Virus record (IMG/VR): IMGVR_UViG_2548876863_000002
DNA from: a virus
Lineage: Duplodnaviria > Heunggongvirae > Uroviricota > Caudoviricetes
Strand: one strand, 5' to 3'
DNA: 14,648 nt
Of this stretch, positions 1-14,648 are shown piece by piece; position 1 is the first letter of the stretch; every line of letters starts with the position of its first letter. The notes below the pieces were generated by a model. That model was not told where the DNA came from and searched no databases. It saw nothing but the letters and a program-made list of their open reading frames with translations. The position numbers and the translations under genes are program-made.

Positions 1-52
1 TCCTGTTTACCTCTTTCTCAGGGAGTTTAGTCTCCAGGATTCCCGGGGCGGT

Positions 53-559
53 TCAGCTCATGTTGTTGGCGTATGTCTGCCCGGCGTTTGCCTGACCTTG
101 CAGCGCACCAAGCCCAACGTTTGCCAGATTGTTGTAATTGCTCATCTGATTTGATAACCAAGACTGACCGAGTGTCGGCGCGATCGTAGCCAGTTGATTG
201 CTTGTGGCTGTCGAACCAAGTCCACCCGTCGCCTCCGCAGCAGCAAGACTCTGGTAACGCGCCTGCCCTGCAAGGTCTTTATACTGCTGAGAGTTGTAAT
301 ACTGATTAAGTGCCTGCCCCTGACCTTCTAAACTGGAAAGGTTCTGAAGCTGGTTAACATACTGCTCCGCAAGAGGCGTGAACGGAGCAAGGTTTTTCAT
401 GATCGTCTGCCACTGCTGATTTTGCAGGTCTGCGGCATACTTCTGAGCTTCTGCTGCATATTTTGCGCTTTTATCAGAGTTGCCACCTTTCCCGCCTTTT
501 TCAGGGCAATAAGGTTCCTCACCGCGCAGTTTTCTGCCCAGTTTAAATGCATATAACAT
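53..559 (-). CDS. Ejection / internal virion protein, P22 gp7-like (168 aa)
   Basis: ATG at 559-557 preceded by GGGAGA 5 nt upstream. N-terminus MLYAFKLGRKLRGEE matches my memory of P22 gp7; position after the gp14-like gene fits the P22 order 26-14-7-20. C-terminal half is Q/N/G/A-rich. Shorter than the 229 aa I recall for P22 gp7. Confidence 0.6.
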   Translation of the reverse strand: MLYAFKLGRKLRGEEPYCPEKGGKGGNSDKSAKYAAEAQKYAADLQNQQWQTIMKNLAPFTPLAEQYVNQLQNLSSLEGQGQALNQYYNSQQYKDLAGQARYQSLAAAEATGGLGSTATSNQLATIAPTLGQSWLSNQMSNYNNLANVGLGALQGQANAGQTYANNMS

Positions 560-561
560 GG

Positions 562-1017
562 CTATCTCCCGTGATTCAGGAAGTCGATTAGTTCTTCGCG
601 TGTGGCGCTGTAAAACGTCACGTCATCCACGCCTTTGAAGTATTTCTTGATGGTTCCTACACGCTTAAGGCCAATCATTGCGCAGTACATCTGACCGTGG
701 CGGAATTTGCGTGCAGCGAACGATGTGACGCACTGAACGGTGGTGTTAGTCAGAATGTATTTCCAGAACTCCAGCCCGATTTCCTTGCTGAATCCACGAA
801 CCTCTGGCAGGTACATGGCGTGGCAATCGAATGTAAGCGGCTGAATCTCCTGATAGTAAACAATGCCGCCAAACTGACCGTGCACGTTAACCTCAAAGTA
901 ACGGCATTCAGGCTTGTAATCGTATCCATCACCGTTGTTGCTCCCGGCAATAATGTCAGGGTGATTTCCTACTGCTTCTATCAGGTCGATGTTTCGCGTT
1001 GGTTTGAACTGAATCAT
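562..1017 (-). CDS. P22 gp14-like protein (assembly factor for ejection proteins), 151 aa
   Basis: ATG at 1017-1015 overlaps the needle gene stop as TAATG. Assignment is by position between needle and gp7-like genes, not by recognised sequence. Confidence 0.55.
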   Translation of the reverse strand: MIQFKPTRNIDLIEAVGNHPDIIAGSNNGDGYDYKPECRYFEVNVHGQFGGIVYYQEIQPLTFDCHAMYLPEVRGFSKEIGLEFWKYILTNTTVQCVTSFAARKFRHGQMYCAMIGLKRVGTIKKYFKGVDDVTFYSATREELIDFLNHGR

Positions 1018-1865
1018 TACTGCTCCGCGATTATCTTGATGGTTGTGGCAGTAAACGCCGCACCATTTGACTGGATGGTTAACGTACTGCCATTTGTGGC
1101 AAGAAATCCGTCTTTATCCACGCTGAAGAACGTAGCTAACAGGATGTTGTCGGTTGTTGTCGCCGCATTACGACTGCTAACCAGTGTGTCAGGAACAGAG
1201 CCGGAAAAGGTTAGCTGCATTGACCTGTTGGCGGTTCCGCTGGGCCACGTCCCGACGATCGACAGCTTGAAGAACAAGGTTTTGTTCTCGTTGAACACAA
1301 CCATCTTGTTGTTAACGGTATCGAAGAATGGCGCTAATGTTCCTGATGACGGCGTGAGCGTTTTCAGCAGACTGACAAGGTTGGTCGGCGCTGTCGGGAT
1401 GGTTACAGATACGCCAGAGTAAACAACCTCTGACTTCTTGCGAGTAGTGGCATACTCCAGAGCATCGATGCGAGTTTCATGGTCTGAAAGCGTGTTTTGA
1501 ATGGCGACAACTTCATCCGTCAGGTAATCAATATCGTTTTCTGCTGTCGTTAATCGTGAGTCAAGGCTGACTATCGCCGCTTCTGCGTTAGTGATCCTTG
1601 TTTCGTGGTCCTGTATCTTCGCTTCAGCTGATGCCAGTCGAATTTCGTGATCAACCAGAATCACATCCTGCTCATCGTTCCTGACTTGTGCGTCATAAGC
1701 GCCCTGTCCGGCCTCGTTGGCCTTGTTAGCCACGTTACCAACATCAGTGCCCTGTGCGATAACGTAAAGCAGATACGACTGCGAGAAGATATTGCGTGGA
1801 AGAACTGATGTATCGAGCCGCGTAGCTTGGATGATTACCGGCACATTGAGATTCGAATCCGCCAT
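1017..1865 (-). CDS. Tail needle (P22 gp26 family) with C-terminal knob-type domain, 282 aa
   Basis: N-terminal ~60 aa ([43 protein letters not shown]...) match the conserved gp10-binding tip of P22 gp26. This is followed by a heptad-like coiled-coil segment with DHETRI repeated, then ~140 aa of Thr/Ser/Gly-rich beta-type sequence that the 233-aa P22 needle lacks. Start overlaps the gp10 stop as TAATG. Confidence 0.8.
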
Positions 1866-3283
1866 TACTCAATCCTTATCTGGCAGCCAGACAGAGTGAC
1901 TGGTGACTTCGTGATAACGCGCAATTTGAAGCCGACATTTTTCCTGATGCGCCCTACTCGTTTCCACAAAACGCGTTTGTCGTAAACGAACGGTTCATTC
2001 TGCTCAATCATCTGCTCACGTCCGTAATTGATGCCGTCAGTGGTTGCAGAGAGGAACAGTCGGTCGGCGTACTGCGCAACGCCAGTTGACGATTCAACCT
2101 CAAGGTCGAAAACTCTGGCGTTATCTGCTTTGAAGAGTGGAGTAAACAGCAGGTGTTCCTGCTGCTTGTCGTACTGGCTGCTGATATCGAACTGCAATTT
2201 CCCGGTCACGGACTCCAGCTTATCGCCGCACGTTATCTGATTGCCTTCGTAAATGAAGTCGATAGCGCGGTACACATCGTCATACAGGCCTGTTTTCAGC
2301 ACACACCATTGCGGACCATTGGCGCTTGAAGATGCGTCGTAAACAAGAACATGGCGCGGAAGGTGGATAATCAGCAGCTCATGCGCATCAAATCGCAGAG
2401 ACTCCATCACGCCATCAGCCAGTTCATCAGCAGTGTAGGAGCGTAGTATTTTCTCAATGCTCGCGCTGGCGATTGGTGATACCTGACCGGAGCCGATGAT
2501 ATACACAGACGGCGCACCTGTTGCCGGATTGCTGATGAACGCATAAGAATCAGCGAATGGCGTTTTGCAGTAAGTCCCGGCAATACCTTTCTGCACCATC
2601 AGCGATGGTTGTGCAACATACAAAGCGGCACCAACGGTGGTTGCACCAGTCAGGGAGAAATATTCAATCGTCGATGAACCAAAGCAGACGATGAAATCTC
2701 GCCATGTGCCGATACCGATTATTCCGTCAGGCTGTGATTCTGCCCGATATTGTGCGCTGTAGCGGTCAGGATGCGATTCGTCTTCAAGGTCAGTGATAAA
2801 CCATGAATCGGTGCCGTCTTTTGACCACGCATAACGCCCACGTAATCGCGTAATGTCGCGGACTGAGCCTAACTCATACTGCGTGAATCCGCTGTCTGCA
2901 GGCCAGTTTGAGACGGTTTTAACCGTGCCATCATAGCGATACTCGACCAGTTGACCATTAACGCCTACAGCCTGAGATGTCCGACCATGAGCCATTGATA
3001 CGCGACCACTTCCGGAAACATCACCGACTTCGCTTTCGCCCTTATACAGCTTGCCACCACACACGCGATAAACAGCATTCTGCGCCATGTTGTACTCGAC
3101 GCCTCGTGATACACCGTTCACATCAGAACGTTTGGCAATGCCCGGGAATGAGCGAAGATATCCGCTGCTGTTCAGGATTTCTTTGGGTGTAGCCAACATA
3201 TTCACTGGCAGATAGTCGATATAGTCGGCGTTTCGAAAGTCTTTGCCGACACCTTTCATAAGCGGAAGTTGCTGAATCGGCAT
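1865..3283 (-). CDS. Tail accessory factor gp10 (472 aa)
   Basis: Length equals P22 gp10 (472 aa) and it sits between gp4 and the needle. ATG at 3283-3281 directly abuts the gp4 stop. Confidence 0.8.
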
Positions 3284-3784
3284 TTATTCGCTCCCGTTAT
3301 CGCAAGGTTCCTTCCGGTGGAAGTAATTCCAACCGTTCCACTTCGCCAACTGATTACCGCTACCAACAGGCATACGGTTTGGATAACCGGACTTACATTT
3401 TGCGGCTTTTGCTCTGTCCATTGCAGACAGTTTGACGAGTCGCTCTTTCCCGTATCTGGCAGTGGTTATAAGTTTTGCAGACGCTTCCAGCGCATAATCC
3501 GGAGCAATGCGGCAGGCAAGGTTGAAAATGACGGCATTGATAGCGTTATTTGATAAACCGTGTTTATCGCCAGGATCTGGAGCGACATCTGCATCAGCGA
3601 AAATGTAGCCAACGTTGATACCTGGTGACGCATCACCGCCAAGCCATTCAGCCATCATCATTTCAAGGTCGTTAACGCCGTCTTCCATAGACTGCGGTTC
3701 GACATCGGTTAACGTGGCATTTGATGCCACACCGAGCTTACGTAATGCCGCAAGAACTAAATCACCCTTCGTTGTCAGGTTCAT
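3284..3784 (-). CDS. Tail accessory factor gp4 (head-to-tail adaptor), 166 aa from internal ATG
   Basis: The open frame runs to 3847 (187 aa), but the ATG at 3784-3782 has AAGG 9 nt upstream and gives 166 aa, the P22 gp4 length. The [34 protein letters not shown]-terminus resembles P22 gp4 from memory. Confidence 0.7.
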
Positions 3785-3986
3785 CTGCTGCCGCCTTAGG
3801 TTTTCGACCAGGCTTTTTACGCTGTTTTTCTTCTGGCTCTGCAACATCCTTCAAAAGGTCATCAGGATGTGAAAACCAGCCAGCATCCAGATATTCCTGA
3901 AGCTCTTCGGCTTTCACGATTTCAAAGTCGTATCCAACGCCTTTCCATTTCTTCATGTCTCCATGACGAAAGATCATGTGTGTCAT
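3762..3986 (-). CDS. Small hypothetical protein between coat and gp4 (74 aa, basic C-terminus)
   Basis: The track ORF 3762-4034 begins with GTG overlapping the coat stop. The first ATG (3986-3984) has GGAGA 5 nt upstream and lies just after the coat terminator. Product [16 protein letters not shown]...[22 protein letters not shown] small ORF at this position is known in P22-like phages. Confidence 0.45.
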
Positions 3987-3998
3987 GCTTGTCTCCAG

Positions 3999-4022
3999 AT
4001 AAAAAAGGGAGCCGAAGCTCCC
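3999..4022 (-). terminator. Intrinsic terminator immediately after the coat gene
   Basis: Minus-strand RNA GGGAGC-UUCG-GCUCCC (6-bp GC-rich stem, UUCG tetraloop) followed by UUUUUUAU, 8 nt after the coat stop (TGA at 4033-4031). Confidence 0.6.
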
Positions 4023-4030
4023 TCTGGTTA

Positions 4031-5326
4031 TCACGCGGTCTGGTTAGGCAGACCAACACCAATTGCCTCTGGTCGTACAGCACATGCTGAATACCACACA
4101 GCAATACGGCACTTACCAGACAGAGTGTTGATATCACCCTGCGTTGCGAAGATGCCGTTAACACCAATACCAGGAATGCTGAAGGAAGACGTTTTCATGC
4201 CAGCAAACAGTTCATGGGTTACCGGGATCGGCTGAGACAGAAGGCGGATTGAGTCATCAGCCCAGAACACGTTAGCGGTGGTTGTTGCCACGTTCAGAAC
4301 GTTTACCGGAGTGGTATCAGCAAGAGAGGTGTTTACGTTAGCGTAAGCCTTCTCTTCTTTTGTCAGTGACGCGTCATCCAGTGCAATCGGTTTCGGCGTG
4401 ATTTCGATGTGAGTACCATCGATCACACGGGTGATTGAGAAAGTAGCATCATCAGTCAGCACGTTCTTCGCCATCTGAGACAGGAATTTCACACCAGTGA
4501 AACTGATTTTGTCGCCGCGCTTAAATCCGGTGGTGGAGGATACGGTCACCGTTGCAACACGGTTGTCGACGTTCTCTTTGTTACCATCGGTATCAAGGGT
4601 GTATGCCTGCGGCTTAAACTTCTGCGCACCAGAAACAGTTACACCAGTAGCGGTTGACTTGGTAACTGCCGGAAGTTTCGGTGAGCGAAGAATTTCATCA
4701 AAGCCAGCAATCTGACGCTGAATAGTACCGTTGCGATACGCTTCTTCAGGAACGCGCCCGAAGATGTCACCATCTACCAGGTTGCGGCCTGCTTTACGGT
4801 AATCGTCAGGGTTCAGGAAGTAACTGATGCCCATATCGCGGTTTAGCTCACGGGAGAACATCAGGCGCTCTGCATCAGACACAAAATCCCAGCCAGACAG
4901 GCCAGTAGATGGACCAATTGCGCGGGTATCGTGAACAACAAGCGAGCCCATTTCAGTTGCCTGTTTGGCAATCGCTGACTCAATGTTATTCGCCAGTTTT
5001 TTGGCGGATGCTTGGATGCGGCGACGGTAAGAACGCTCATCACGCAGGTCATCTGCACGAAGCTCGAAGAAATCGTTATCCGGATCGCCCATGTTGCATT
5101 TCACGGAGAGTTCCAGAATCCCGGTTGCGTTGCCAGTTAAATCCCAGCCAGTCTGGGTTGGCGCTTCCTGCTCAACAGGCATCCACACGGTGTTGCTTGA
5201 ACGCTGCATGGATTCTGCCGGAGGGGTGTATTTTGTCACTTTTGACGCCATTGGCGTCAGGTTCTGGACGGTTTCGATGATTTCATCCAGAGCATACGTG
5301 ACCAGTTGACCTTCATTTAATGCCAT
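4031..5326 (-). CDS. Major capsid (coat) protein, P22 gp5 family (431 aa)
   Basis: Full-length similarity to P22 coat protein as I recall it (MALNEGQ... ...[14 protein letters not shown]), diverged. ATG at 5326-5324 overlaps the scaffold stop as TAATG; AAGGA 8 nt upstream. Confidence 0.9.
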
Positions 5327-6237
5327 TATCGAATTCCTTTATTCAGTTGCGCCTTGAGCTTGCGGTATGTCTCTACATCCCCTTTGTTTGCTGCCGCTTC
5401 CATCTGCCTTTCAATCGCAGAGATATTTGCAGCAACAGCGTGTCCATGAATGGGTTCATCAGGTAACGGGGCTTCTGAAACAGGCTTGGCTCGAGGCTTG
5501 AGAGTTAAACGTTCTGACAGTCGAGTGAGTTCAATCAGCGCGGATTGCCCGTCCATCGCCAGCAACTGGCGTGTTTTCTCAGGATTAGCACCAAGGTGAT
5601 ACATGAGAGCGGCGGATTTCTCCGGGAAGAGGCGCATGATGTCGGCACCGACTGCTGGCGGCACCAGTTGCATGAATGCATCCTCTTTCTCCTGATAGTC
5701 AGGGATATTGAGCTTTTCCGCTGCGTCGTAGTGCTTACGGGCTGCCTCGACGTATTGCGCTGATTGCTGGGTGAACTCCTGAGTTTTGCGACCCTGCTCG
5801 GCGACAGCCTGGCTTCGTGCGTCCATAGCCTTGATCTGCCATTCACTGTTTGCCTGCTGGAAGGCGGCCAGTGCGCGGCTCTGGTCATAGTCGTACTTAG
5901 CCAGTGCATCTTCGGAAAGATAATCGTTAGGGTCTGGTTGTTTTGGTAACTCAGGGTTCACCCGCAGGTGCTCCGGCAATTCTCCACGCTTAACCGCTTC
6001 CATCTGCTGCTCAAGCTCACGCTGGCGTTTGCGTTCGATGCGGCGACGGGCAAATTCAGCATTAGTTGCCGGGTCTTGTTTTGGTTTCTCATCGTCTTTC
6101 AGGACAATCTCGAAGCCTTCTTCCTGACCTGCGCTGTCGTTGGCATTATCGACAACTAAGCCATCAGCAGATGCCGCTGCATGATTGCCGGGCAGGGTTA
6201 ATTCTTCAGAAGCCTGAATGTCGGTGGTTTGGTCCAT
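5326..6237 (-). CDS. Scaffolding protein, P22 gp8 family (303 aa)
   Basis: 303 aa, the P22 gp8 length, with long identical stretches ([26 protein letters not shown]; [71 protein letters not shown]). GAGAGAG precedes the ATG. Confidence 0.9.
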
Positions 6238-6250
6238 GATTAACTCTCTC

Positions 6251-8416
6251 TTATTGAGGTGTCTCGGCTACTCCGCCGGAGGGGATTTGAACTTGACGCA
6301 TAAGATTCGCGAAATCCATGCGTTGTGAATGAGTCTGGTCTGCATCTTTAAGAAGCAGCTCAGCGTTAGCACGAGCATCTTTGCTGCGCTGTTGCTGGAA
6401 TTGACCTACGAGCTTGAGGTACTCACGCAGTTCTGCCTGCTTGTCGAGGTCCATATTGTTGAAGATTTCCGCAATCTTCGCGGCGTTGAGTTGGTTTTGG
6501 GCTTCAACCTTGGCGGCTTCAACCTGAATCTGCGCCTGTTGGTTCTCTGCCTTGAGCAATTCAGCCTGACCTTGCAGAAGGATACCCTGCGCCTGAATTT
6601 GCTCTGCTGATGGCTGCTGCGGCTGCTGTTGAGCCTGCTGTACCATCTCCATCTCTTCAGGTGTTTCTGGTTTCTTCAGCCCCATCATCACCAGTTGCTT
6701 GTTCGCGTACTCTCGCATCATCTCGACGCCTTTACCATCAAGCAGCGTGAAGTATTGCAGCATCAGCATCTGGAACTCTGGAGTACCTTGTGGAACCTTG
6801 GTGAGTAACTCCTGAATCTCTGCGCGGTTCTGTTCCTTCATACTCTGGAAGGATGGTCCAACGTCCGTATAGCACTCATAGCGACCGCGAATGTCGTTGA
6901 GTGTGACCACATTGCCGGACTGGTAATCGACAACTTGCGCATAGAGTTGAACGTCTTTCTCGCTTCCATCTTCAAGTGTCAGCGTTACATGACGAGGAAC
7001 GTCATAAATATCGTTGACCATTGAGGCATAAATCTCGCCATCACGTCGCATTGCGGTAGCCAGGTTATCCTGAAACACGTATGTCTCAAGGTCTGCCCGC
7101 ATGTTCAGTTGATTGACGGTATCGAAAGCGACCTGAGAGTTTGCTGCCTGCGCATCCACACCAAGACTAGCCACCTCTTTCACTGCGTTGGTGGCAGCCT
7201 CAAGCATGTAAGCGTTGGCTTGCGGCACTTCAGGGTTTTCCATGTAGGAGATTGGACCAATCGGCAGGTCGTTACCGTTTTCATCGGTCCTGTTCTGCAG
7301 ATAGTACGGATAGTCATCATTTCCACCGTACATGTATTCGTAGCCTTCGATTTGCTCAGGGAAGAAAGTCGGTTTCTTCTTCGGTGAACGAGCAACAATA
7401 TCGGCGTTGAATGACATGATCATGTTACGAAGGCGTTGACCGTCTTTCGTCAGCCTTACCACTCCTTCGTAGCACTCCTTGTCACCAGCGAATGACCATT
7501 CGCCATATACTGGAACGATTGGAATATGCTCTCCGGCTATCTTCTCGCGGTCTTTCAGTATCTGCGTGCAGGTGATGATCGACTTATACACACGCCGACG
7601 CTTGACCTTACGCTCTGCTACCTTAATGAATCCACGATTAGCCAGGTCATCGATGACGTCTTTGATATCCTGCTGGTAATAGCTGACCGGCTCACCTGTC
7701 AGCGGGTCGCGGTAGATGAAGACTTTCTCTTTCTTCTCTTCGACCTCGTAATACTCAGCGACGTAGACGACATCATTCGATACCCACGGAAACAGCCATG
7801 TATCGTTCGGATTCTGGAAAGATGGCAGCGTGTCAGGATCAATGCCGTAATCCTCTGCGAACTCTTTCCAACCATTGCGTGACAAGGCGTTAATCACCGT
7901 GCAGTGCTTGGCGTCGCTCTTATCCATCTGCTTGCTGTTGGCATCCCATATGACGTGTGAGCAGGCTTCATGGATTGGAAGGCGTCGGATTACCTGATTG
8001 TTGCTTGTTGGGTCGTTGTCTTCGTACTGCGTGAGCAGACGCCATGCACCAACGCCGGACTCTATCTGCTCACGAACTCCAACGTTAACGGCAATCTTTG
8101 CCGTGTTATGGCGCATATCAGTACGATACATTCCCATCAACACATCGGCTGCATCAGGATTAGCACCGTCTTTTGGTCGGAAGAGAACGTCGATAGGGTT
8201 CCGGCGCATCTCTGCGACCAGCTTCCTGACCACCGGGCGGACAACATCGAATTGTCCGCGATATTGCAGGGTGGTGTAGTTTGATAGCCAGTCATCCCAT
8301 TGCGACACTCGGCTAAAATACAGGTCATTTGTCGCCTCGGTTCTGGCTTCATCGCTCGCCATCCAGTCTGCGTCAAACTTACACAGAATGGAATTGAGTC
8401 TGTTTTCGTCGGCCAT
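6251..8416 (-). CDS. Portal protein, P22 gp1 family (721 aa)
   Basis: 721 aa with extensive similarity to P22 portal, including the Q-rich C-terminal helical segment. ATG at 8416-8414 directly follows the terminase stop. Confidence 0.9.
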
Positions 8417-9916
8417 TTAAGTTCTCCGTGCGATGGGCCTGATTGGGGCTGGTATCTTTTTCTCTTTTGGTTTTTTGATGTCGCGCATCATTTTTGCGAA
8501 GCGGCGCATCATGTATGCATAGCGAACGGCTGAGAGAACGTCGTCGTTAAGCTTGACGATCTTCCCGTTTTCATCACGGTGATAGAGGCGGAACTCCTCA
8601 AAGAATGGCTCACAGGTGTTGAATACTTTGAAGCGACCATCAAGCATCATGTCGCGCAATTCAGTGATGCCAGGCTCAACAGCATTACCGCCATCAGGCC
8701 ATGTCGCATGCTCCTGCAACATCATAAATCCAGCGTCTGCATACTGCCCTTTGAGCTGCTCACCGCCACCCTTCTCGTGCTGGTTTCCGTCATGAGGCCA
8801 TGCGGTTGGCACTTTATGCGCCCATGATTTAACTGCTCCCCACGCCTGAACGGCTGTCTTTTCTTTCGCCTTCCACACGCGTGAAACGTAGATTGTGTCT
8901 GCGTCCTTATCCCACCAAAGCTGAACCTGCGCCTGCGGGTGATCCCATCCGAAATCCATACCGCCAATTACGTAGAAGTGATCAGGACACTCGAACGGCT
9001 GACACTTAATCGTCTCTTCCGGTATCTGGAAGATTCGACCACTACCCATCGTAGGAATACCGCGAGCACGCGCCTCTCTCTCATGCTCAGGATAGGATGC
9101 GATGATTTGCTCTTTCTGCTCGTCGGTATAGTGCTCAGCGTCATAGATGGTCATGTTGACCACTTTCTGCGACTTGCTGGGATTCTTCAGGAACTTGGTA
9201 ACAACGTCAGACATCCCCATCAGCGGGGTAAACGTCAGGATTGAGAATTGCCCGTATTTGTTGGTACGGGTAAGCCCTTCGCCATAAATGCTGTATGGTG
9301 GTTCTTCGTCAAACCACACTCCGTGGATTGTGTCACCCTGCCAGCGAGCACGACCTTGCGAGTATGGCTTGAAGTAGCAGATTGAAATGCCATCTTCAAC
9401 GCCATCAGCCGTGTGATGCTTAACCAGAAGGTGATCAACAAGGTTCGGAAAGAAAGGAGACTTCTTCCAGCTAATGATGTCCTCTTTCGGTATTGAACCG
9501 TAGCCCGGTTCATCATTCTCTTCAATACGACCGCACAGGATGCGTTGAGTCGTTTTGGTTACCGTCTCGTTTGTCTCGCCACCAATCCAGAAGACAACAG
9601 GCTCATAGAAACGCTTACCTTTCCACTCCCCACCATATTTACCATCAGCAGGATATCCTTTTGTGCCCGGATAACGCCCGGTAAGGTGAAATGCGACTTC
9701 AGCAGCACCAGTAAATGACTTACCAAGCTGGTTACCAGCCATAAAACAGCGCTCTGGATAGTCATGCCCGGCGTCGATGAACTCACGCTGTTTGCTGTAT
9801 GGCGTAAATTCATATAGCAGGTGTGTGTTCCGGTAGTTCTCTTCTTCTTCGAGTAGCTCGAGCAATTCGATTTGCTCTTCGTCGCTCAAGTTATCAAGAA
9901 TCGCGTCCAGTTCCAC
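8417..9916 (-). CDS. Terminase large subunit, P22 gp2 family (499 aa)
   Basis: 499 aa, matching the P22 TerL length. The start codon at 9916-9914 is GTG, the first start after the upstream stop, with AAGGAG 10 nt upstream; it overlaps the small-terminase 3' end by 23 nt. Confidence 0.88.
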
Positions 9917-10382
9917 GGTTGAATAGCTCCTTGATACGAGAGCGCCGCTTATCGCGATCTCCCTTATCAGGTGTCACGTCTTCAACTTGCGACTGCTCTT
10001 TGATGCCCAAATCACGGGCGATGATGTTAGCGTTGAGAAGGTCAGCGGCTGCGCCAGAGAATTTCTGGTCGTAGATGATGTCTTCCGCTCGCGATGTGAC
10101 GTCAGAAAAACCTTCCATTGACCGGAAGGTTCCCCACGTTTGCCTGGTGATATCAAGGAAGGTACACAATCCTGAAATAGTCATGGCTCGCATCTTAGGG
10201 ACATTAGCCTTAATTATTTCTCCCTGATATGAAAATACCTTACCCTCCCATAGTGGGTTATCATCAGCCCACTCGAAGTATTCACAACAAGCAGCCCACA
10301 GCGCCTCAGGCGATTCGAATTTAGGATTTCGCCCATGACTACTGCGGGCCTCCCAAAATCGGTTGCCCTTTGGTGCTGCCAT
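9894..10382 (-). CDS. Terminase small subunit, P22 gp3 family (162 aa)
   Basis: The track ORF starts [11 protein letters not shown] at 10388. The second ATG (10382-10380) gives 162 aa, the P22 gp3 length, and has AAGTGAG 6 nt upstream. Confidence 0.85.
10094..10115 (-). other. Candidate pac (packaging initiation) site inside the small-terminase gene
   Basis: Minus-strand GAAGGTTTTTCTGACGTCACAT lies about 265-286 nt into the gene, the position of the P22 pac site, and matches the P22 pac sequence I recall (GAAGACTTATCTGAGGTCGTTA) at 14 of 22 positions. Part of that similarity may be coding conservation. Confidence 0.4.
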
Positions 10383-10417
10383 ATTCATCTCACTTAGTTG
10401 TCATTTCAGGTTGAGCA

Positions 10418-10660
10418 TCATGCTCCGGTGGTGAACAGGTCTAACGCTTCCTTCGATTTACGCACCGCTTCGATAGTGCGGGTCGTGATATCTGAATTAG
10501 CGCCGCCTGACTGGAAGTGAATTTTGAATAGCTCAAGCTTCAGCTCGTCAGTGCCAATGAACTGAAATGCTTCCTCTGCGGCTTCGTTCTGGTTCATGAC
10601 CAGTTTGTAAATCTCTAACTGGAATTTCTGTTCTTCAGTCATAGGAATAATCTCTGCCAT
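10418..10660 (-). CDS. Hypothetical protein (80 aa) immediately upstream of the small-terminase gene
   Basis: ATG at 10660-10658 with GGAG 6 nt upstream. P22 has an 80-codon ORF at this position. Acidic, helical-looking product; function unknown. Confidence 0.55.
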   Translation of the reverse strand: MAEIIPMTEEQKFQLEIYKLVMNQNEAAEEAFQFIGTDELKLELFKIHFQSGGANSDITTRTIEAVRKSKEALDLFTTGA

Positions 10661-10681
10661 TGTTGGCTCCGTTTATCCGTT

Positions 10682-10707
10682 AAAAGGGATATCAGTTAAG
10701 ATATCCC
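10682..10707 (-). terminator. Hairpin / weak intrinsic terminator between the 126-aa and 80-aa genes
   Basis: Perfect inverted repeat GGGATATC-(6 nt)-GATATCCC; on the minus-strand RNA it is followed by UUUUAACGG (only four U). Confidence 0.4.
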
Positions 10708-10763
10708 GTGTAGGGTATAAGCCATTATCAAAGCCACTCTGTAGGGAATGGCTTTTGTAATAA

Positions 10764-11144
10764 CTACTGTTCGCTTAGCTTCTGCTTCAGCAAGTAACCT
10801 TCGAGCATCCAGATTTTGTTTACAGCATTTTGCCGGGCAATCTTCCGACCAATTTCTGCATCAAAGTTTTCCGGGCTTGCACAGGCACTCTCTCCGGTGA
10901 CGGTGAAGCCATTCTTCAGCACCAGTACGCAGAAAGTGAGCAACTTCAATGGTGATAAATCACGATCGCCTTCTTCTGGTTTTTCCCTGCCACAATATTC
11001 GTTGCTGGAAATGGCACCATTTCGTCCATCATAAGCAGTAAAGTAATGCTCGCTTTTAATCACGTCTTCGATGTGCTGCGGAGTGATTCTCGGAGCGGTT
11101 TTGCCTTTCTCAACGATTTCTTTTTCGATTTGCTGGTCGTTCAT
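10764..11144 (-). CDS. Hypothetical phage protein (126 aa)
   Basis: ATG at 11144-11142 with a weak AGGG-type ribosome-binding site. Product MNDQQIEKEIVEKGKTAPRITPQHIEDVIKSEHYFTAYDG...NGFTVTGESACASPENFDAEIGRKIARQNAVNKIWMLEGYLLKQ. Not recognised with confidence. Confidence 0.55.
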   Translation of the reverse strand: MNDQQIEKEIVEKGKTAPRITPQHIEDVIKSEHYFTAYDGRNGAISSNEYCGREKPEEGDRDLSPLKLLTFCVLVLKNGFTVTGESACASPENFDAEIGRKIARQNAVNKIWMLEGYLLKQKLSEQ

Positions 11145-11434
11145 AATTATGACCCTGTGGAGTGGTTGCTTGATTAGGATGTCTTTCCATCAGTCCGCCA
11201 CCACAAAGAATCTTTTTTTTGCCATAAGGCAGGAGGTTCATCTTTCAGTGGCTGCCAGTGTTATTTCCCCACTTACTGGCTTGGGTTGTTTCGCTGTACT
11301 GCCGTAACTGGTTACCCAGAATAAATTCCGGTTTCATTATCAAGCCCACCCGTAGATGGGCTTTGTAATGGATAGCTGTTGCTCAGTTCTCGTAATGCTT
11401 TGATTTTTCCGATAACGCAGTTTTGCGTTTGCCA

Positions 11435-11956
11435 TCAGCAAGCGATATCGAGAGTCAACTGCAGTTGCTCGCGCCAGTACTCGACATTTGCTTCAATAAC
11501 CGGCTTATCCCATCGCCAGCGAGCCATCTCTCTTGCCCCATTGCTGGCTTTTGATTTCCGGTCATCGCGAATGCGACATGCTTGCTCATATTTCTGCTGC
11601 TCAGTCAGTTCACCGCGAAGCAGACTATCAATGTGCAGGTCGCACCACACAGCAAAACGAGCATCACACCAACGGGCAAATGCAACTGAAAGTTTTGGAT
11701 GTAGCCACGTACCACCACCCCTGTCCTTTCGTGCCTTGCTGGTTTTTACATACCTCGATTGTGAGGGATGTAAAATTTGAGATTCTTTCCCGGTCAACGC
11801 TTCGTCTAAAGCACGAACGTATTCAAGCGTTTCTGCCAAACGCATCCAGTTATCAATGCGTTTCCCAAATCTCTCAGCAACACCTGTGACGTTGATCCAA
11901 CCATCAGTGTTGAAACTGACAATTTCACCTTTGTAATTAAGTGGCACGATATTCAT
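11435..11956 (-). CDS. KilA-N domain protein (173 aa)
   Basis: ATG at 11956-11954. Carries the KilA-N-type signature: ...FGKRIDNWMRLAETLEYVRAL...GGGTWLHPKLSVAFARWCDARFAVWCD. Confidence 0.65.
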   Translation of the reverse strand: MNIVPLNYKGEIVSFNTDGWINVTGVAERFGKRIDNWMRLAETLEYVRALDEALTGKESQILHPSQSRYVKTSKARKDRGGGTWLHPKLSVAFARWCDARFAVWCDLHIDSLLRGELTEQQKYEQACRIRDDRKSKASNGAREMARWRWDKPVIEANVEYWREQLQLTLDIAC

Positions 11957-12071
11957 AACGTTTACCTACCATTTGAAATGAACCTTTGCCGCACAGGAAA
12001 CCAGCCCACCGAGGCTCGCCAGCACTAACTGGTATCCTCAAAGGCCCATTCCAAAGGGTCAGGTTCGGTGT

Positions 12072-12098
12072 AAAAAACATGCGTTGCGGTACGCATTT
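12072..12098 (-). terminator. Intrinsic terminator (second of a tandem pair downstream of Rz/Rz1)
   Basis: Minus-strand RNA AUGCGU-ACCGCA-ACGCAU followed by GUUUUUUA. The same hairpin is followed by UUUAUU on the plus strand, so it may act in both directions. Confidence 0.55.
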
Positions 12099-12103
12099 AT
12101 TGC

Positions 12104-12126
12104 AAAAAAGCCCCGCATCGCGAGGC
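12104..12126 (-). terminator. Intrinsic terminator (first of a tandem pair downstream of Rz/Rz1)
   Basis: Minus-strand RNA GCCUCGC-GAU-GCGGGGC (7 bp including one G-U pair) followed by UUUUUU, about 30 nt after the Rz stop. Confidence 0.6.
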
Positions 12127-12158
12127 TCATTAAATGGACTTTGTGATTTGCAAAAAAA

Positions 12159-12596
12159 TTACTTCAGGCATTGCGTCCTGATGTACTCCTGCAGGTAGTT
12201 AACCTGCGCGGTTATCCTGTCGATTCCACTTCGGAGACGGTAATAATTGAGTTCAGCATCTGCTGTAAGTCTTGGGCTTTCTCCATCGCCCATGCTGCTG
12301 GCTCCGGTCGTTGACTTTGCACAGGTGGCGGCGACTTGCAGGCGCTTACGACCAGCAGAAACATCAGCACGGAGACTTTCGATAGTCGCGTTAGCATCAG
12401 CAAGCTCCTTTGTATATCTGGCATCGAGTTCTGCTACGTCACGTTGACGCTTCTGCATGTCAGCAATGATGTACGTGGCCTTATCGCGCTGTTCTTTATA
12501 GGCAATGGCTTTATCACGGTAATGATTAACAGCCCATGACAGGCAGACGATGATGCAGATAACCAGAGCGGAGATAATCGCGGTTACTCTGCTCAT
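12159..12596 (-). CDS. Rz: Rz i-spanin (inner-membrane spanin subunit)
   Basis: From the ATG at 12596-12594 the product begins [28 protein letters not shown], essentially the lambda Rz N-terminus. The start overlaps the endolysin stop as ATGA. The track ORF starts 4 codons earlier (MGAAM). Confidence 0.85.
12212..12397 (-). CDS. Rz1: Rz1 o-spanin (outer-membrane lipoprotein), nested in Rz in the +1 frame
   Basis: ATG at 12397-12395 with AAGGAG 7 nt upstream. Signal peptide [20 protein letters not shown] with lipobox Cys, then a Pro-rich mature region ([16 protein letters not shown]). 61 aa, entirely inside Rz. Confidence 0.78.
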
Positions 12597-13097
12597 TGCT
12601 GCCCCCATAAACAGACTTCACGCTCAATCTCACGGCGAGTCATCAGCCCTTTCCATTGCTTACCGCCAGCGTATGTCCAGCGACGTAGCTGGTCACATGC
12701 GCCTTTGATATCACCCTGGTTTATTTTGCGAAGAAGCGTCGATGTTCTGAAATTGCCAGCCCCCCACGTTGTAGACGAACGAGTAAAGAGCGCCGCGCGT
12801 TGTTTCCGGTATATCGACTTTGATGTACGGGTTAATTTGTCTGGCGACCGTGGCAAGGTCTTTATTCAGGAGAGCTTTGCATTCTGCTTCGGTATACGTT
12901 TTACCGAGCATGATGTCTTTTCCTGTATGCCCGTAACATACAGTCCATACACCAACTATGTCTTTGTAAGGATTATGTCTCACACCTTCCAGACCATCGT
13001 TACCACTTGGGCCAGTGATTAACACAGATGCTATAGCAATAGCCCCGCCACTTATCGCCGCTATTACGCTATTTCGTAGTGCCGGTGACATTGCCAT
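12593..13097 (-). pseudogene. SAR endolysin (phage 21 R-type lysozyme) interrupted by a +1 frameshift
   Basis: The N-terminal ORF (12711-13097) has a Gly/Ala-rich signal-anchor-release helix ([16 protein letters not shown]) and the E-x8-D-x5-T catalytic motif ([17 protein letters not shown]). The C-terminal part continues in another frame (12593-12856: ...[55 protein letters not shown]). The frames meet at a C6 run on the plus strand (12760-12765); one fewer G would give a continuous ~167-aa protein reading ...[11 protein letters not shown].... Confidence 0.7.
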
Positions 13098-13272
13098 TCA
13101 ATCTGTCCTCGCGCTCTTTGCGCTTGTAGTACCAGTTGATGCCAAATGTGCCGACAGTACAAAGAATACCAATGATGACAGCCCAGTCATTCAGGGAGAG
13201 AATGCCACCCATCGCAGTCAGTCCTCCGAAGCTGTAACTGAACCATTCTCTGATTTTGTCCATACGGTACAT
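13069..13272 (-). CDS. Class II holin (pinholin-like, two transmembrane segments) with dual-start motif
   Basis: 67 aa beginning M-Y-R-M (ATG TAC CGT ATG at 13272-13261), i.e. two in-frame starts separated by a basic residue, as in lambda S. Gly-rich first segment ([17 protein letters not shown]), more hydrophobic second segment, charged C-terminus. Its 3' end overlaps the endolysin start. Confidence 0.7.
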
Positions 13273-13278
13273 GCTCTA

Positions 13279-13294
13279 CCCCTTCATTGAGGGG
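13279..13294 (-). promoter_or_regulatory. Stem-loop over the holin ribosome-binding site (analogue of the lambda S upstream hairpin)
   Basis: Minus-strand CCCCU-CAAUGA-AGGGG ends 6 nt before the first holin ATG and contains the GAAGGGG ribosome-binding sequence. Lambda has CCCCUUAUUGGGGG at the same place. Confidence 0.45.
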
Positions 13295-13562
13295 ATTTGC
13301 TCTATTTAATTAGGAATAAGGTCGATTACTGATAGAACAAATCCAGGCTACTGTGTTTAGTAATCAGATTTGTTCGTGACCGATATGCACGGGCAAAACG
13401 GCATCAGGTTGTTAGCGCAACCTCTTGCCACCCGCTTTCACGAAGCCAGCCATTGAGCTGGTTTTCTTTTATGCAAAGCACACCGCACCGTAGCCACAGC
13501 GGATAAGGTGAGGGTTTTGTCTGTCTGGTTTTTGGTGGAATGCGCTTTCAGAAATGTCGTGC

Positions 13563-13586
13563 AATAAAAAGGCCGCCTTAGCGACC
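13563..13586 (-). terminator. Intrinsic terminator of the cargo ORF
   Basis: Minus-strand RNA GGUCGC-UAAG-GCGGCC followed by UUUUUAUU; the ORF's UAA stop codon sits in the loop. Confidence 0.55.
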
Positions 13587-13853
13587 TTTATTTGAATTTG
13601 GATTCCCTCTCCATTTCCATTCATCTTTATGAGCTGCAACGCCAAGTTCGGTAAGAGAGTAGTATTGCATTAAGCTATGATATCCGCCGTTATTATCACG
13701 GTCGAAAAAGCCAACAGCAAGATATCCATGACGGACCAATGAGTCAACCATGAGAATCTCATCATCCTGTACGTCAGAATCAGCAATTCTCTCCTGCTTA
13801 AATTGAAGAATTCGATTGAGAAAATGCAGTTCTCTTCCAGAGATTTTTTCCAT
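13578..13853 (-). CDS. Hypothetical small protein, cargo (moron-type) gene between tR' and the holin (91 aa; 118 aa from the alternative start at 13934)
   Basis: The frame is open from the ATG at 13934, which has no ribosome-binding site. The internal ATG at 13853-13851 has GAGG 5 nt upstream. Visibly AT-richer than the flanking late genes and followed by its own terminator. No homolog recognised. Confidence 0.45.
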   Translation of the reverse strand: MEKISGRELHFLNRILQFKQERIADSDVQDDEILMVDSLVRHGYLAVGFFDRDNNGGYHSLMQYYSLTELGVAAHKDEWKWRGNPNSNKGR

Positions 13854-14163
13854 AACAACCTCGTCTAGTTGCTCGTCTATGTTCGCTATGGCAGGCAGTG
13901 ACGATACTGCTTTTCGACTGGCCGGTCTAGCCATAGCTGAAGGGGACCAGTTACGTTTATCAGGCGTCTTTCGACCGATTTCCTGAGGTAGCAGGTTAGG
14001 ATGTGGTGGCTACTACGTGAGACTTAGCTCAGCGCCCTACAGGAAGGTTCTTTGGCTGAGTACCCATTACAAACCCTGTTTTAACCACATGGGGAAGCCA
14101 ACTCTCCCAAATACTTAGTGTCGAGCCTAAGCAGGGCATGAAAGAAGGCTTTCCGTTGTGCTT

Positions 14164-14200
14164 AAAACGCAAAAAGCCCCGAGACGTTAATATCAGGGCT
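14164..14200 (-). terminator. tR'-like intrinsic terminator of the short pR' leader transcript
   Basis: Minus-strand RNA AGCCCUGA-(10 nt)-UCGGGGCU (8 bp, one G-U pair) followed by UUUUUGCGUUUU, about 25-60 nt downstream of the predicted pR' start. Confidence 0.5.
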
Positions 14201-14219
14201 TGAACGAAGGCAGCAACCC

Positions 14220-14261
14220 ATCGTTAGAGTCAAATTTACCCAACTTTATTCAAAAAGTCAA
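14220..14261 (-). promoter_or_regulatory. Late promoter pR' with Q-utilisation region and pause-inducing element
   Basis: Minus strand TTGACT-(17 nt)-TAAATT-TGACTCT-AACGATGGGTT is near-identical to lambda pR' as I recall it (TTGACTTATTGAATAAAATTGGGTAAATTTGACTCAACGATGGG). The -35 is at 14261-14256, the -10 at 14238-14233, and the AACGAT element at 14225-14220. Confidence 0.8.
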
Positions 14262-14303
14262 TATCATGCCGTTAATATGTTGCCATCCGTGGCAATCATG
14301 CTG

Positions 14304-14648
14304 CTAACGTGTGACTGCATTCAAAATGTTGTCTGCGATTGACTCTTCCTTGTGGCATTGAACCACCAGAGCGTCATACAGCGGCTTAACAGTGCGTGAC
14401 CAGGTGGGTTGAGTAAGATTTGGGATTAGCATCGTTACAGCGCGATATGCGGCGCTTGCTGGCATTCTTGAATAGCCGACACCTTTGCATCTTCCGCATT
14501 CTTTCTCAACAACTCTCCCCCACTGCTCTGTTTTTGCTATATCAACTGCCCGACCTGTACCGTGGCAATCTCTGCATCTTGCGCCCGGCGTCGCGGCACT
14601 ACGGCAATAATCCGCATAAGCGAATGTTGCGAGCACTTGCAGTACCTT
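14304..14648 (-). CDS. Q: Late antiterminator Q, lambda type (C-terminal part; 5' end beyond the window)
   Basis: The frame is open to the window edge; the track's M at 14636 is a GTG inside the gene. Sequence ...ATFAYADYCRSAATPGARCRDCHGTGRAVD...CGRCKGVGYSRMPASAAYRAVTMLIPNLTQPTWSRTVKPLYDALVVQCHKEESIADNILNAVTR matches the lambda Q zinc-binding C-terminus from memory. Stop TAG at 14306-14304, about 45 nt before pR'. Confidence 0.8.
   Translation of the reverse strand, partial: KVLQVLATFAYADYCRSAATPGARCRDCHGTGRAVDIAKTEQWGRVVEKECGRCKGVGYSRMPASAAYRAVTMLIPNLTQPTWSRTVKPLYDALVVQCHKEESIADNILNAVTR

Follow-up and report, generated by a model that had tools for sequence, protein, structure and literature searches.

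A probable slippage-derived frameshift pseudogene of a phage 21 R/RrrD-type SAR endolysin in a defective P22-like prophage of Escherichia coli

The window, by which we mean the whole stretch of DNA analysed (14,648 nucleotides of the IMG/VR virus record IMGVR_UViG_2548876863_000002), carries the late genes of a P22-like prophage. Genes 3, 2, 1, 8, 5, 4, 10, 26, 14, and 7 follow one another in the same order as in the P22-like phage IME10 (Lederbergvirus), to which the sequence is about 96% identical over about 80% of the window. The prophage as such was found in no record of the complete-E. coli or phage collections searched. Unlike IME10, which has a lambda-type S/R cassette, the window holds a lysis cassette whose genes are arranged on the minus strand in the order holin, lysozyme, and Rz with the embedded Rz1. 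The partner holin belongs to the HP1/PF16080 type, as in the P22-like phages PS34, ST104, and Emek, and not to the S21 type. Its DNA is identical in all sister loci; an apparent second lesion in this gene (47 aa instead of 67 aa in some loci) was discarded, being a matter of the start chosen by the gene caller. The coordinates of these and of the other features discussed below are collected in Table 1.

Table 1. Features of the window that bear on the split lysozyme gene and on the state of the prophage
Feature	Position	Strand	Remarks
IS3-family terminal inverted repeat and leader (TGAACCGCCCCGGGAATCC...)	1..55	-	contig end; second late-operon lesion
P22 gene 7 (ejection protein), cut short at codon 168 of 230	53..559	-	stop supplied by the IS end
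Tail-needle gene (gp26 position)	1017-1865	-	282-aa knob-bearing type, PF16532; IME10 needle 233 aa
Rz i-spanin gene, intact	12159..12596	-	145 aa, PF03245
Rz1 o-spanin lipoprotein gene, embedded in Rz	12212..12397	-	61 aa, PF06085
Remaining lysozyme codons, 55 (A113-Q167) plus stop	12593..12760	-	+1 frame relative to the N-terminal ORF; PF00959 profile 77-125
N-terminal ORF of the split SAR lysozyme gene	12711..13097	-	128 aa, ATG start; PF00959 profile 3-85
G6 homopolymer (C6 on the plus strand), +1 insertion site	12760..12765	-	ancestral G5 = GTG GGG GCT (Val-Gly-Ala)
Holin gene, intact	13069..13272	-	67 aa, PF16080, HP1-type class II holin; overlaps the lysozyme start
int-alpA RNA (Rfam RF02996)	13871-13937	-	43.7 bits, above the gathering score
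Q antiterminator gene, cut by the contig end	14304-14648	-	110 of 207 codons; full gene in sister contigs

Upstream of the cassette, the int-alpA RNA match falls in the interval that separates the Q antiterminator and holin genes. It extends over the start of an unannotated ORF of 118 aa (13578-13934), for which no Pfam match was obtained. A 12-bp insertion occurs inside this element, at about 13880, in the sequencing run SRR18965447 (contigs L004/L023). The assembly break at which the window ends is probably due to a second copy of Q, 94% identical and located in another prophage (L015 17731-18150).

The lysozyme gene is read in two frames. The product of its N-terminal ORF, which is already present in public records under the name "phage lysozyme", consists of 112 native residues and, before the stop, 16 residues read out of frame. 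The preliminary description had assigned a SAR helix and the E-x8-D-x5-T motif to this ORF, and the translation bears this out: the basic residue R8 is followed by a weakly hydrophobic, charge-free TMD in which A, G, S, or T account for 12 of the 20 residues from S10 to G29, and the catalytic triad reads E37-x8-D46-x5-T52. Equally, its placement of the C-terminal third in the +1 frame, with the break at the C6 run, proved accurate to the base. The two frames meet at this run, the only G/C run of six or more in the window; the stretch of the gene that spans the tract is GTGGGGGGCTGG. Runs of at least five G/C number three in the window, two of which are found inside the lysozyme gene. In the gene as found, no uninterrupted ORF encodes the whole GH24 domain, its two fragments being matched by separate parts of the PF00959 profile. 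Removal of a single G yields an ORF of 167 aa, the DNA of which is identical to that of the intact gene in two sister assemblies (see below), and the repaired protein is covered by PF00959 from profile position 3 to 125 of 125.

The expectation that one fewer G would restore a phage 21 R-type lysozyme of ~167 aa is confirmed by relatives of solved structure that match it end to end. Residues 3-167 of the repaired protein align to residues 1-165 of both PDB 4ZPU (RrrD) and 3HDE (phage 21 lysozyme), with E about 1e-103 to 1e-104 and ~93% identity. The E-X8-D-X5-T triad, a motif defined in PMC9239132, is common to the repaired protein, phage 21 R (R21), and RrrD of the E. coli K-12 prophage DLP12 (3HDE/3HDF, 4ZPU), as is the placement of the gene in a holin-lysozyme-Rz/Rz1 cassette. 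Furthermore, the SAR segment is near-identical to that of R21, while the C-terminal 55 residues are identical to those of RrrD. In contrast to R21 and RrrD, the frame here is broken after residue 112, and a full GH24 domain is no longer encoded. As a comparison of sequences, the full-length match speaks for ancestry and not for present function; the lysozyme gene as found is a pseudogene of the phage 21 R/RrrD-type SAR endolysin family (GH24, PF00959).

The truncated product retains the SAR anchor and the E-D-T triad. However, it is predicted to be inactive because the last 55 residues, corresponding to about 45 of the 125 GH24 positions, are missing. The frameshift may also reach the neighbouring spanin gene. 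In the allele with five Gs (5G), the TGA of the lysozyme gene overlaps the ATG of Rz (ATGA; in GCA_047262435.1, contig L018, lysozyme 5977-6480 and Rz 6477-6914). In the allele with six Gs (6G), upstream translation ends 115 nt before the position of this TGA, so that ribosomes would stop short of Rz and translational coupling to it would be lost; the GGGGG Shine-Dalgarno-like element before Rz is still present. Should the late operon still be expressed, the intact holin would be expected to kill the cell with no wall degradation, spanin action, or lysis.

The break in the lysozyme gene had been presented as the only obvious lesion of a late operon that is intact in all other respects. This holds for positions 560-14648 of the window, in which the other late genes match their IME10 or P22 counterparts in length, but fails at the contig end, where gene 7 is truncated by an insertion sequence. 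The first 55 nt of the window (TGAACCGCCCCGGGAATCCTGGAGAC...) represent the same end as that of the IS3 copies annotated in NZ_AP042519, and the element is one which we take to be IS629/IS1203-like. The first three bases of the IS give the stop codon of gene 7, and the truncated gp7 is identical to residues 1-168 of IME10 gp7 at 167 of 168 positions. Beyond the IS, the longer contigs are of three types. Type 1 continues with a 161-aa ORF, mnt/arc, tailspike, acyltransferase, and an integrase adjoining yfdC and mlaA; type 2 is type 1 plus IS66; and type 3 is an entirely different prophage. The partner joined after gp7::IS varies by strain, being IS66, the other orientation of the IS, or another prophage. 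Searching 10 kb downstream in contigs L014-L016 by tblastn, we detected none of the gp7 C-terminus, gp20, or gp16. Compared with IME10, gene 7 is cut, and downstream of it genes 20 and 16 are lacking, although, within the limits of the 10 kb covered, IS-mediated rearrangement could have relocated these two genes to another part of the genome without their loss. Essential particle genes are disrupted, and the prophage is a defective (cryptic) one. As in other cryptic prophages of IS-rich E. coli lineages, of which it is a typical example, it bears multiple IS3, IS21, and IS66 insertions as well as junction rearrangements that differ between sister strains, and its lesions fall independently in different late genes.

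On the far side of the junction, the genes for tailspike, O-antigen acyltransferase, and integrase are neighbours in L016 (14961-20153) and L014 (12522-17714), adjoining yfdC and mlaA, a location which is presumably the argW region. Not a single early gene is found between acyltransferase and integrase in these two contigs, and in L003 (1-963) an IS abuts the replication gene O. These layouts suggest that the immunity and early-left region was rearranged or lost through the action of IS elements.

An exact protein look-up located the 128-aa product on 23 contigs. One of these, AIBO01000160.1 of the NCBI assembly GCA_000446825.2, is the window itself, its locus (L005) being equal to the reverse complement of the window. 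Six Gs were read in the DNA of all 13 distinct samples whose product-bearing loci were inspected, namely five NCBI assemblies (GCA_000446825.2, GCA_037957325.1, GCA_005392385.1, GCA_014105715.1, and GCA_005392585.1) and eight sequencing runs (SRR18965447, SRR21465849, SRR11484554, SRR20517296, SRR18743864, DRR103090, SRR6816948, and ERR6099770). Over up to 14.6 kb, just 0-4 substitutions separate these loci from the window, and for this reason we regard them as one prophage in one clonal lineage. One of the 6G assemblies, JARWBV, is that of strain MFDS1017696, an EPEC/ETEC hybrid of serotype O49:H10 and ST785 isolated from beef in Korea in 2020 (PMC10454139).

The same prophage occurs with five Gs and an intact 167-aa gene in GCA_047262435.1 (L018) and GCA_037957285.1 (L020), where the lysozyme DNA equals that of the window minus one G. 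In both assemblies the portal gene is interrupted by an IS21 and the nin region by an IS3; neither insertion occurs in any 6G copy whose locus spans these sites. Apart from the IS insertions and the G, L020 shows zero real substitutions relative to the window. Apparent SNPs at window positions 6992-6996 in the 5G loci were dismissed as alignment-edge artefacts of the IS21 target duplication. At the portal gene (equivalent to window about 6985-7001; contigs L014, L015, L018, and L020), the coding sequence is split by IS21 in the 5G sub-clade, with an IS3 added in L018. Among 24 contigs read for the neighbouring gp3 protein, two are 5G and about 21 have 6G-type places. The gp7::IS junction, on the other hand, is common to both sub-clades. 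Two points follow from this distribution. By parsimony over the two sub-clades, the shared junction indicates that the prophage had lost the ability to form infectious particles before it gained the G. Moreover, as the state of the tract tracks the IS-defined sub-clades, with one state in each, one mutational event would explain the tract-length pattern, a single insertion apparently sufficing and no homoplasy being seen. The sub-clades are decaying via different lesions.

Sequence comparison shows five Gs to be the ancestral state of the tract. The complete genome NZ_AP042519 contains a block of 2,397 nt identical to the window except for the 5G; this block sits in a different prophage, and the gene is annotated there as an intact rrrD. 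A 33-mer specific to 6G was absent from all 5,426 complete E. coli genomes, 25 of which contain the 5G 32-mer used as a control. Exact scans of IMG/VR, GTDB species representatives, and JGI metagenomes with 6G 24- to 35-mers returned no match either, a result of little weight given that the 5G control was near-absent there too (0 and 2 matches). The length of the G run was also compared in relatives, as the preliminary description had proposed. Among the 80 closest IMG/VR homologues, 78 of which have intact ORFs, it is G3 in 69, G2 in six, and G5 in five, and none has G6. For the glycine at this site, 75 of them use GGT or GGC and the remaining five GGG. The tract is not maintained by selection across the gene family but stems from a minority synonymous GGG codon; on these alignments, the run is a variant that happens to create a mutable tract and no conserved feature, which argues against a programmed frameshift or a phase-variation site. 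An unrelated rrrD homologue in NZ_CP083512 (strain elppa4; L002 1511-1999) is annotated as a pseudogene and has a different lesion, with GGGTG at the site. Endolysin decay among E. coli prophages is not unique to the lineage that contains O49:H10 ST785.

Could the sixth G be an error of sequencing or assembly, the true tract being 5G and the gene intact? The break does fall exactly in a homopolymer, and the window derives from a draft assembly (AIBO01000160.1). Nevertheless, no fewer than 13 independent samples, deposited in several archives (NCBI, SRR, ERR, and DRR), show the same 6G, the SRA-derived contigs being presumably mostly Illumina. It is also found in JARWBV, a Unicycler hybrid of PacBio and MiSeq reads (PMC10454139), while JARWBQ, probably from the same project to judge by its adjacent accession prefix, has 5G, and therefore the 6G call is no systematic artefact. 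The remaining homopolymers of the window, eight further A/T runs of at least six, leave every ORF unbroken. The preliminary description had listed an error of this kind as one reading, and we reject it as having next to no probability. Equally improbable is that the gene as found still yields enzyme, either by programmed or leaky +1 ribosomal frameshifting or as a functional split enzyme whose fragments complement each other. Leaky expression of the wild type by a +1 slip is chemically conceivable, since in G-GGG-GGC a P-site tRNA-Gly bound to GGG would, on slipping by one base, pair without mismatch to the GGG that overlaps it, so that the product would read V-G-A-G-N-F as in the wild type, and small amounts might matter for a catalytic protein such as an endolysin. 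However, the site is missing in 75 of the 80 homologues, and its 6G form is confined to one clonal prophage. The zero-frame codons that follow GGG are GGC and then TGG. As GGC is a common codon, the tract has no known stimulator: neither a stop nor a rare codon comes next, and nothing resembles the prfB arrangement. Both marks of a programmed +1 site, a conserved slippery sequence and a stimulator, are thus lacking. As to a split enzyme, the C-terminal fragment is provided near the break neither with an ATG or GTG start nor with a Shine-Dalgarno sequence. A second ORF of 87 aa is called mechanically at 12593..12856 (minus strand), but it begins with a TTG at 12856 that is preceded by CTGAATAAAGACC, in which there is no Shine-Dalgarno sequence; separate translation of the C-terminal piece would accordingly not be expected from these signals.

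A further reading, also raised in the preliminary description, is that the tract works as a contingency locus which toggles between five and six Gs by slippage and turns lysis competence on and off in the population. Both states are indeed seen in an otherwise identical prophage of very close strains, and G/C homopolymers are the most indel-prone among short tracts. Yet typical phase-variable tracts are longer than six Gs, the run is unconserved among homologues, and the 5G and 6G states are unmixed across the IS-defined sub-clades; besides, switching of lysis would be purposeless in a prophage that lacks intact ejection-protein genes. We consider such a switch unsupported and very unlikely. 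Slimmer still are the chances of a variant in which the tract is either a reversible switch or a low-level +1 tRNA-Gly slippage site that keeps up a trickle of endolysin, with 5G a revertant instead of the ancestor; were this true, it would allow occasional lysis from an otherwise domesticated prophage, releasing for example DNA, vesicles, or toxins. Somewhat less improbable is selection by the host. SAR endolysins are released at a low rate even without holin (PMC9239132), and a frameshift that disarms a spontaneously releasing enzyme might be favoured in a prophage that is unable to spread. The 6G sub-clade is the majority and is found under NCBI, SRR, ERR, and DRR accessions; this majority (about 21 of 24 contigs) could reflect selection as opposed to neutral drift. 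Against this, the sister sub-clade retains the intact gene and gathers IS insertions elsewhere, the holin, lethal alone, is still intact, and a single event carries no statistical signal of selection. Host-selected domestication is therefore unsupported and, in our judgement, unlikely.

We conclude that the locus is, with high probability, a vertically inherited, slippage-derived frameshift pseudogene of a SAR lysozyme in an already defective P22-like prophage. The proposed course of events would be the following. The prophage is carried by a clonal E. coli lineage, at least one member of which is O49:H10 ST785. It is crippled by an IS3-family insertion in gene 7, after which genes 20 and 16 no longer follow, and would have become so before or independently of the G insertion. 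As the prophage was already defective, selection for lysis would have lapsed, and the most mutable G/C tract of the region would have decayed: replication slippage would have added one G to the G5 tract (GTG GGG GCT) of the phage-21/RrrD-type lysozyme gene. The idea of a real inactivating mutation hence stands, the allele being inherited, whereas the statement that it leaves a lysis-defective prophage was too modest, with gene 7 already cut by an IS and the operon lacking genes 20 and 16.

The pseudogene is an ordinary one, and the prophage that harbours it is decaying and riddled with IS elements. For annotation, the gene should be recorded as an RrrD/R21-type SAR endolysin pseudogene caused by a frameshift, and the prophage as defective, with little wider import. 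The case may serve as a worked example of how a homopolymer error is told from a real mutation by means of the exact truncated product in independent assemblies. Finally, the length of the tract is a marker that splits the two sub-clades of the prophage-bearing lineage, which includes O49:H10 ST785.
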